Under the pieces are notes generated by a model that saw only the letters and a program-made list of their open reading frames with translations, had not been told where the DNA came from and made no database searches. Shown in pieces: positions 290 to 393 of a stretch of DNA of 64,000 nucleotides. Numbering within the stretch: position 1 is the stretch's first letter; every line of letters begins with the position of its first letter. Origin of the DNA: Candidatus Omnitrophota bacterium. GTDB lineage: Bacteria; Omnitrophota; Gorgyraeia; Duberdicusellales; 4484-171. Made by a program: the position numbers and the translations under genes. The stretch covers positions 304 to 64,303 of the forward strand of contig JAIPHU010000003.1 of assembly GCA_021735045.1 (NCBI GenBank), written 5' to 3'.

Positions 290-393
290 CCATTAAAAAT
301 GCAATTATTTAGCGAATACCTTTATTTTTAATGGCATCGAGCCGACTTCCTCAGCGCAATGCAACATTTTTGTTTGAACCTGTTTTGTCGCAT
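290..393 (-). repeat. Conserved ~105-nt intergenic element, copy 1 (two hairpins: CCATTAAAAAT...ATTTTTAATGG and ATGCGACA...TGTTGCAT)
   Basis: ~80% identical to 29479-29660 in the same orientation. Hairpin 1 (359-393) abuts the stop of the ThiI-like gene. Hairpin 2 (290-334) ends at the metY Shine-Dalgarno. The G/A difference in the hairpin-1 stem keeps pairing as a G-U wobble. Confidence 0.6.

Follow-up and report, generated by a model that had tools for sequence, protein, structure and literature searches.

Dispersed hairpins and a Y1 transposase gene in Candidatus Omnitrophota: a probable REP/RAYT-type repeat system

What is the conserved element that stands twice, at 290-393 and 29479-29660 and in the same orientation, in a 64-kb stretch of a Candidatus Omnitrophota genome (contig JAIPHU010000003.1)? 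We refer to this whole stretch as the window, and positions are window coordinates unless a label of the type L### is given; these labels (L001-L073) are numbered DNA stretches from the compared genomes, mostly Omnitrophota metagenome-assembled genomes (MAGs). The initial annotation saw one intergenic element with two hairpins and offered two explanations, a modular terminator/leader RNA or a small genome-wide repeat family. Our comparison leads to a different picture. The region at 290-393 is a mosaic of three adjacent small repeat modules, here called M1, P1 and block A. We consider it probable that these modules belong to a repeat system of the repetitive extragenic palindrome (REP)/REP-associated tyrosine transposase (RAYT) type, REPtron- or TIRtron-like and with the mosaic organisation of bacterial interspersed mosaic elements (BIMEs), and that they do not make up one RNA element. 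This reading builds on the multi-copy dispersal of M1, its structural covariation, its association with a Y1 transposase gene and the presence or absence of modules at orthologous sites, and also on a predicted RAYT-like fold of the Y1 protein.

M1 is a hairpin of 35-42 nt with the consensus cYTATGCAACA-loop-TGTTGCATAAGg, in which an AT-rich stem of 9-12 bp (core ATGCAACA/TGTTGCAT) carries a loop of 19 nt. P1 is a second hairpin, GGCACT..AGTGCC, followed by the tail ATTAAAAATA, and block A has the consensus GGTATTCGCTAAATAATTGCATT. In the window the M1 block (block B, ATGCRACAAAACAGGTTCAAACARAAATGTTGCAT, 35 nt) lies at 359-393(-) and 29623-29657(-) and block A (AAAGGTATTCGCTAAATARTTGCATTTTTAATGG, 34-38 nt) at 290-323(-) and 29479-29512(-). 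Each block gives two matches in the window and none in 100 dinucleotide shuffles, which bears out the two co-oriented conserved blocks first described, and a repeat finder lists both as D8 and D12. The first hairpin, M1, is predicted in both copies with RNA and DNA parameters alike, with 9-11 bp in the window copies. It was said to abut the upstream stop codon; in copy 1 it overlaps the TAA of the ThiI-like gene, and copy 2 sits 9-12 nt past the stop of V-ATPase subunit K (29670-29672). At the other end block A stops exactly where had been stated, at the metY Shine-Dalgarno sequence in copy 1 and at the first G of tRNA-Val in copy 2.

How widely is M1 dispersed? An exact 18-mer from its loop (ACAAAACAGGTTCAAACA) was scanned in 185,579 species-representative genomes and returned 52 loci, 15 of them (17 matches) in six Candidatus Omnitrophota MAGs and one in a MAG labelled Planctomycetia. 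The full hairpin, with unrelated flanks, is found at all 15 Omnitrophota loci and at the Planctomycetia locus, and at none of the other 36. Eight exact-core copies occur in JAIPHS01 and 3, 3, 1, 1 and 1 in the five other MAGs; these copy numbers are lower bounds, the genomes being incomplete, and by chance a given 18-mer would be expected far less than once in a genome of a few Mb. A covariance model (R1) built from M1 copies finds no M1 in the window beyond the two known copies; elsewhere it finds diverged copies, among them, in L056-60, hairpins with this stem and a loop of a second type (AAAGTGTTGTCAACGGAAA). A third loop type occurs in L072. In a 21-sequence alignment both sides have changed in 6 of the 16 stem pairs (ATGCA/TGCAT, ATCCA/TGGAT and CAGAC/GTCTG are instances), the score for covariation is higher than in all 500 shuffles, and 70.8% of cells pair, as against 20-44% in controls with the partner slid by 1-3 columns. 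Variant stems that still pair include CAGACAAAAC/GTTTTGTCTG in L039 and ATCCAACAAAA/TTTTGTTGGAT in L049; the stem in L014 is weaker. Both further copies and covariation are thus found for hairpin 1, and the suggestion of a small genome-wide repeat family of REP or miniature inverted-repeat transposable element (MITE) type is supported for it, by its abundance in several Omnitrophota genomes and by the copies on either side of a RAYT-like Y1 transposase gene. On a simple map of open reading frames (ORFs) M1 lies between ORFs everywhere except in L049 (876-927), where the hairpin is inside a contig-long open frame of 895 codons on a low-coverage contig, either as an intragenic copy or through an artefact of ORF calling. 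In L038 (6126-6197) an M1 with the v2 loop has a perfect GC-rich palindrome of 20 nt (CCTGCCTGCCGGCAGGCAGG) nested in the loop, a repeat inserted into a repeat.

What could have dispersed these hairpins? In L014 a variant M1 lies directly upstream of an ORF that matches the Pfam family Y1_Tnp, and Y1 homologs in L018 and L001 (56-89% identical) likewise adjoin M1. M1-type hairpins stand on both sides of the Y1 gene in every lineage examined (L001, L018, L014, L056-59, L060, L061 and L072). The pair in L061 (contig JAIPHE010000003.1; Y1 homolog P0003 at 80389-81246) is identical, hairpin by hairpin, to copy 2 of M1 in the window (42/42 positions), which brings the M1 total on the window and L061 to two in the window and two beside the L061 Y1 gene. 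The L061 stretch does not overlap the window, and the window's own genome very probably carries the Y1 gene, tens of kb from the window. L072 is a 949-nt contig with another Y1 homolog that starts and ends inside inverted M1-type loops, the outcome to be expected of assembly where a multi-copy repeat lies on both sides of a gene; 16 of the 120 listed Y1 homologs are on contigs of 925-999 nt. The more distant homolog in L073, with the same Y1 and helix-turn-helix (HTH) architecture and 47% identity, has another hairpin-forming repeat (GACACAAAACAAGTCWGACTTAAAGTG) behind it, present twice in tandem (900-965) up to the end of the contig; this suggests that each Y1 lineage has its own repeat.

The Y1 protein has 277-292 aa, with a Y1_Tnp core (Pfam PF01797, E 7e-10) and a C-terminal HTH. 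Its only NCBIfam match is REP_Tyr_transpos (NF047646), over profile positions 2-145 of 146. The C-terminal HTH_23 match is weak: it spans residues 256-282 at an E value of 7e-4, short of the Pfam cut-off. Many homologs carry a precomputed PF13384 annotation. In the AlphaFold model (pLDDT, the predicted local distance difference test, 82.9) the C-terminus appears as a helical domain, and profile searches gave weak resolvase-type HTH matches. There are 183 homologs at E <= 1e-10, and those with a source name are almost all labelled Omnitrophota. H66 and H68 (HUH) and Y125 are invariant in a set of 47 homologs. Sequence and profile searches of the PDB with this protein reached no Y1 structure; the fold search alone did. 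The best fold match of the model is the structure of E. coli RAYT in complex with a REP hairpin (4ER8; E 2.9e-5, template-modelling score 0.72, root-mean-square deviation 2.2 A over 138 columns), and the IS608, ISDra2 and IS200 transposases follow behind it.

The rank of these structures matters for a second explanation, in which the M1 pair would be the ends of an active IS200/IS605-type unit of ~960 bp (hairpin-Y1-hairpin) and the solo hairpins its footprints or miniature derivatives. Two hairpins do bracket the Y1 gene tightly, they lie on the same strand in four lineages, as in IS200/IS605, and the IS608 and ISDra2 TnpA proteins are strong fold matches. However, it is RAYT and not TnpA_IS200 that matches the predicted fold best, the Y1 protein, with its extra HTH domain, is roughly double IS200 TnpA in length, and the hairpins are inverted in L014, L056 and L072. 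Moreover, the gene does not seem to move. It keeps one chromosomal position in a conserved order of type IV pilus/type II secretion genes, pilins, Y1, cvpA, NIF3, dnaG, rpoD and gatCAB, which is shared by five lineages (72-90% identical) and by every contig read for two protein clusters, with identical neighbours in all contigs read for one cluster. In L014 the context is different and again one of housekeeping genes, and one genomic context per lineage was seen. By the criteria that tell a domesticated RAYT from an insertion sequence (PMC5581495), one conserved neighbourhood is what a domesticated RAYT would show and an insertion sequence would not. We regard an active insertion sequence as quite improbable.

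Are the three modules parts of a single structure? P1 is a third, more diverged hairpin between the two blocks (334-362 and 29519-29549) that is absent from the initial annotation, and in copy 1 its 5' arm shares 4 nt (GCAT) with the 3' arm of M1. The 'hairpin 2' proposed earlier (CCATTAAAAAT/ATTTTTAATGG) is stable in copy 1 only (DNA z score -3.3, against 0.03 in copy 2, where it is lost because of a 3-nt deletion), and its arms belong to different modules, each of which is found without the other elsewhere. The supposed ~75-nt insertion with a TATAAT box in copy 2 turns out to be the native tRNA-Val promoter, TTGATT-N17-TATTAT. Downstream of atpK the relatives L068 and L071 keep both the tRNA-Val/thrS arrangement and this promoter, and therefore the 'insertion' is ancestral sequence. 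M1 lies upstream of the promoter and P1 with block A downstream of it in the transcribed leader; with the promoter between them, M1 is not on the tRNA-Val transcript.

The modules also come and go at orthologous sites. A profile hidden Markov model of the P1-A part found it upstream of a NIF3-like gene in L018 and L001, and P1 alone is present in L021, between tRNA-Ile and tRNA-Ala of the rRNA operon. The site upstream of NIF3 holds P1 and A in L018 and L001, A without P1 in L060, neither in L056 and, in L061, an A-P1-A-P1 tandem array that is cut short where the contig stops (1.9 copies with a period of 75 nt, 98% identity). The spacer between the ThiI-like gene and metY varies likewise (Table 1), and M1 copy 1 has an orthologous counterpart with a different loop in L062-64. 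P1 and A were found in the window, L001, L018, L021, L060, L061 and L065/66 only, and the evidence on them comes from four independent sites; when metagenomes were scanned for block A (ATAAANGTATTCGCTAAATANTT), the only matches were three unrelated ones due to chance. In P1, 88.6% of cells pair and two pairs are compensatory, a covariation that does not reach significance in the set of six sequences. GCAT or ACAT stands at several module junctions and could mark a cleavage or target site, which is a lead only. Relatives have further genes in the atpK-tRNA-Val spacer, an unannotated ORF of ~230 aa in L068 (4060-4760) and a DUF5678 plus aspartyl-protease-like pair in L071 (4088-4670), where the window has only repeats; this spacer is therefore a recurrent insertion site.

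These observations bear directly on the idea that a single composite RNA controls the gene downstream in cis, either as a terminator with a leader or as a 5' element of riboswitch type. In its favour, the two copies in the window run in the direction of the genes beside them and take up all the space between the stop codon and the Shine-Dalgarno sequence or tRNA start, M1 and P1-A share their spacers, and every P1 and A copy seen runs with transcription (the last two points are taken up below). But the modules are separable, gained or lost at orthologous sites; a native promoter divides M1 from P1-A in copy 2; and the downstream units (metY, tRNA-Val, NIF3, an rRNA spacer) are unrelated. M1 is co-oriented with neighbouring genes about as often as it is antisense to them. 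At the origin region the genes of the window change strand, with 56 features on the minus strand and 9 on the plus strand, and near 60 kb the sign of the GC skew flips; local GC skew can therefore proxy the direction of replication. Against this proxy M1 has no strand bias: 11 copies lie on the G-rich and 21 on the C-rich strand, or ~9 and 13 when orthologous sites are collapsed. A strand bias is expected for transposition of single-stranded DNA coupled to replication. The mixed orientation relative to genes and skew makes an orientation-dependent RNA function unlikely.

Nor does M1 carry the signals of such an RNA. Neither window region contains an intrinsic terminator site, the M1 loop is 19 nt long with no T-run after it, and canonical terminators adjoin some M1 copies (L001 7630-7660, L056 6070-6095). 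In both regions Rfam gives only tRNAs at the gathering score and nothing credible at E <= 10, in agreement with the earlier failure to recognise a known riboswitch by eye. The G/A difference in the M1 stem, taken at first as a wobble that betrays selection on RNA, is a single substitution common to the orthologous copy in L062-64 and L033, and a G-T pair is equally tolerated in a DNA hairpin. With three modules that occur independently, M1 in mixed orientation and no terminator signature or Rfam match, the view of one modular terminator/leader RNA does not stand, and we judge a single composite RNA very improbable indeed. Searches of plasmid, phage and viral-contig collections gave no matches. 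We also considered attC sites, CRISPR repeats and DNA uptake sequences and rejected them: the flanks differ, uniformly oriented arrays and unique spacers are lacking, and no integrase or cas gene lies near. A cobalamin riboswitch (L033 70-271) and a c-di-GMP-I-GGC riboswitch (L039 1047-1155) lie near M1 copies and are unrelated to the repeat.

A third explanation, compatible with a REP/RAYT-type system, is co-option by the host. M1 and P1 would then serve as stem-loops that stabilise or process mRNA, or as protein sites, and the P1 tail with block A would form a movable promoter or short leader in front of highly expressed genes. The P1 tail and block A do give TTAAAA-16-AATAAT before metY, at three independent sites block A directly adjoins a Shine-Dalgarno sequence or the 5' end of a tRNA, and P1 occurs in transcribed spacers (the tRNA-Val leader and the rRNA operon). 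E. coli REPs, for their part, affect mRNA stability and bind IHF and gyrase (PMC3733652). However, the promoter-like match is 9/12, no better than in shuffled sequence (mean 1.1 per region), the 3-nt deletion in copy 2 destroys the -35-like hexamer where a real promoter is already upstream, block A and P1 are absent at orthologous sites of close relatives with no visible replacement, and the covariation of P1 falls short of significance. As a sigma-54 promoter block A was rejected on spacing, and as a sigma-70 promoter because its only match is at chance level and is not kept in copy 2. Co-option of this kind is unlikely in our estimation.

Based on these observations, we propose a model for the REP/RAYT-type system. 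M1 is a REP-like extragenic palindrome that would fold as a single-stranded DNA hairpin, and the DNA rather than the RNA form would be the active one. The domesticated and apparently single-locus Y1 HUH tyrosine transposase, RAYT- or TIRYT-like, might recognise, cut, copy or re-insert this hairpin, a mobilisation deduced from comparative data. The Y1 gene, bracketed by M1 copies, is in a REPtron-like arrangement. P1 and A are accessory motifs that combine with M1, stand alone or form 75-nt arrays, and they may share the route by which M1 spreads or depend on a process linked to it. If the expression of metY or tRNA-Val is affected at all, this would be secondary.

Several points weigh against this model. 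The M1 consensus lacks the GT[AG]G or CGTC tetranucleotide of classical REPs on either strand. No REPIN doublets were found among the M1 copies, which are mostly solitary, the nearest ones being 577-926 nt apart with genes between. Their counts, although lower bounds, are modest: the window has two in its 64 kb, and JAIPHS01 has eight exact cores. Since the search used the loop core as its pattern, ascertainment accounts for part of the loop conservation among the copies first collected. The hairpins that flank the Y1 gene are direct in L001, L018, L060 and L061 and inverted in L014, L056 and L072, and the loop variant does not track Y1 identity, since P0001 is 90% identical to the L018 protein and has flanking hairpins with a different loop. 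The NF047646 match scores 50 bits, below the curated cut-off of 80. Finally, all P1 and A copies found, at the four independent sites only, are co-oriented with transcription, and both M1 and both P1-A copies share the same 2 of the 38 window spacers of at least 15 nt, a coincidence with a chance of ~1/703 under independent placement. M1 and P1-A are therefore not fully independent, which leaves room for a functional composite. It might be that the Y1+HTH protein was domesticated long ago and keeps phylum-wide, tag-less, loop-bearing hairpins together with P1 and A, in mosaics that serve the host, for example as landmarks of single-stranded DNA or of transcript processing at gene boundaries; we hold this to be unlikely, yet worth some credence. 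The sharing of spacers by M1 and P1-A would then reflect a functional composite and the mosaics would not be merely selfish, a corollary to which we give the same small weight.

A further repeat deserves mention next to M1. In L021 (4166-4300), L037 (7702-7840) and L051 (2306-2450) a conserved element of ~140 nt directly follows M1. It has perfect 15-nt inverted repeats at its ends (AGGGGACGTTTCCCTC ... GAGGGAAACGTCCCCT), internal hairpins and no Rfam match; two copies are in one MAG and one is in a MAG labelled Planctomycetia. The element could be a MITE or an unknown non-coding RNA. Its start, GGGGAC, resembles the GGGGWSAS repeats of TIRYT genes.

The remaining features of the window are of another kind. 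Positions 55984-62744 are the chromosomal origin region, with dnaN, dnaA, rpmH, yidD, yidC, a 405-nt spacer, parA and parB. In the AT-rich yidC-parA spacer (60709-61113) are a direct repeat of 48 nt (60763-60810 / 60974-61021) and four palindromes with a CACGTG core (GTTTTCACGTGAAAAC, TTTCCACGTGGATA and similar), which are not classical DnaA boxes; the spacer might be oriC or contain operator sites. Between dnaA and rpmH lies an 81-nt direct repeat (58689-58769 / 58837-58917, 86% identity), whose second copy ends just before the rpmH start and whose two copies are separated by a hairpin (GCGTTTTTTGCCGCAGGCAAAC...); this repeat may be a duplicated promoter or leader. Many spacers in the genomes compared are filled with short-period oligonucleotide repeats (ACAAAT, ATTATCAA, ACGAAT/TTCGTA and TAGAAA motifs), often as inverted halves, and these are a separate, low-complexity kind of intergenic repeat (Table 1).

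Table 1. Repeat modules, adjoining features and other landmarks of the window and of compared stretches (CM, covariance model score; dG, predicted folding free energy; z, z score)
Feature	Positions	Strand	Details
M1 copy 1	358..394	-	AATGCGACA-[AAACAGGTTCAAACAAAAA]-TGTTGCATT; CM 64.2 bits; left arm overlaps ThiI-like TAA stop (393-395)
P1 copy 1	334..362	-	GCATTG-GCTGA-GGAAG-TCGGC-CGATGC
P1 tail (CATTAAAAATA) + block A copy 1 (AAGGTATTCGCTAAATAATTGCATTTTTAATGG)	290..333	-	ends in metY Shine-Dalgarno GGAGG (287-291)
metY ATG	279-281	-	
ThiI-like ORF	393-1385		TAA stop overlaps first base of block B
M1 copy 2	29620..29660	-	CTTATGCAACA-[AAACAGGTTCAAACAGAAA]-TGTTGCATAAG, consensus type; 9 nt past V-ATPase K stop; CM 72 bits; DNA dG -8.9, z -3.9
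V-ATPase subunit K	29670-30116		
tRNA-Val promoter, sigma-70-type	29574..29602	-	TTGATT-N17-TATTAT, TG before; native, outside repeat
P1 copy 2	29519..29549	-	GGCACTG..TTAGTGCC; z -2.45; within transcribed tRNA-Val leader
P1 tail (3 nt shorter) + block A copy 2	29479..29518	-	ends at tRNA-Val first G (29480)
tRNA-Val	29406-29480		
ThiI-metY spacer, window			M1+P1+A; 111 nt
ThiI-metY spacer, L062-64			M1 only, v2-type loop; ThiI 85% identical to window
ThiI-metY spacer, L065/66			block A variant only; ThiI 78% identical to window
ThiI-metY spacer, L067			23 nt; ACATTTTCAATGG in it resembles block A end; ThiI 71% identical to window
dnaN	55984-57081	-	
dnaA	57178-58512	-	
rpmH	58920-59057	+	
parA/parB	61114-62744	+	
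Short-period spacer repeats, window	29190-29400, 30134-30221, 10087-10127/42670-42710		
Short-period spacer repeats, relatives	L011 230-300; L033 470-600; L062 6335-6580, 7506-7683		

What are the implications of such a system? It would extend REP/RAYT-type systems to the Omnitrophota, an uncultivated phylum known from metagenomes only, and M1 would give a concrete hairpin partner to the HTH-bearing Y1 branch, where a published survey found no REP-like sequences. The repeats break assemblies, as seen in the frequent placing of the Y1 gene on a contig of ~950 bp and in the L061 contig that ends inside a P1-A array. They can also pass for riboswitches, terminators or leaders in the annotation of MAGs. 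Orthologous spacers with differing module content, moreover, offer a natural series for following the gain and loss of motifs.

A full-text literature search found no paper that links Omnitrophota with REPs; the comparisons that follow are with systems described elsewhere. The nearest is the REP/RAYT (TnpA_REP) pair, or 'REPtron' (Nunvar 2010; Bertels & Rainey 2011, PMC3116915; Ton-Hoang 2012; 4ER8, PMC3479197). Common to both are a short extragenic palindrome in many dispersed copies, an apparently single-locus Y1 HUH gene bracketed by the same palindrome, syntenic and apparently vertical inheritance of that gene and, for the Omnitrophota protein, a predicted fold nearest 4ER8. The differences are that M1 has no GT[AG]G guide tetranucleotide at the hairpin foot, that its stem is AT-rich and its 19-nt loop has at least three lineage-specific variants, that its copies are mostly solitary instead of REPIN doublets, that the protein has ~285 aa with a C-terminal HTH and a NCBIfam RAYT score of 50 vs a cut-off of 80 bits, and that the host phylum is Omnitrophota.

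The HTH domain invites a second comparison. Quentin et al. 2018 (PMC6006769) place Y1 proteins with a C-terminal HTH_23/DnaA_C domain in subclass 2.1, report no REP-like sequences near their genes, and equate the subclass with the TIRYTs that Di Nocera et al. described in 2013 (PMC3733652), tyrosine transposases whose genes stand between terminal inverted repeats. These repeats are described as self-complementary in some cases and as members of moderately abundant families in others. By its domain architecture the Omnitrophota Y1+HTH protein would fall into TnpA_Y1 subclass 2.1: it is a long Y1 protein with a C-terminal HTH_23/DnaA_C-like domain. Its gene resembles a 'TIRtron' as described in PMC3733652, being flanked by repeats that are self-complementary and come from moderately abundant families. 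Unlike TIRYT repeats, the Omnitrophota flanks are complete M1 hairpins without GGGGWSAS and of variable relative orientation (direct in four lineages), and the palindrome is associated with the gene in every Omnitrophota lineage examined, whereas none was reported for subclass 2.1 (PMC6006769). The surveys of Quentin and Di Nocera do not cover Omnitrophota.

Like IS200/IS605 elements (IS608, ISDra2), the system has a Y1 HUH enzyme whose gene has an imperfect hairpin at either end; in four lineages the two hairpins share a strand. It differs in that the Omnitrophota gene is not multi-copy or mobile as far as seen and has no tnpB, and in that the hairpins far outnumber the gene and are inverted in three lineages. 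The BIMEs of E. coli, finally, offer an analogy of organisation only, with no sequence similarity; in the array seen the palindromes do not alternate in orientation, and the Omnitrophota arrays are short, one being cut off by a contig end. The analogy lies in the joining of a palindromic unit with other conserved short motifs into mosaics that vary by site, in tandem arrays (A-P1-A-P1, 75 nt) and in the location of these mosaics, which follow stop codons or separate genes of one operon direction.

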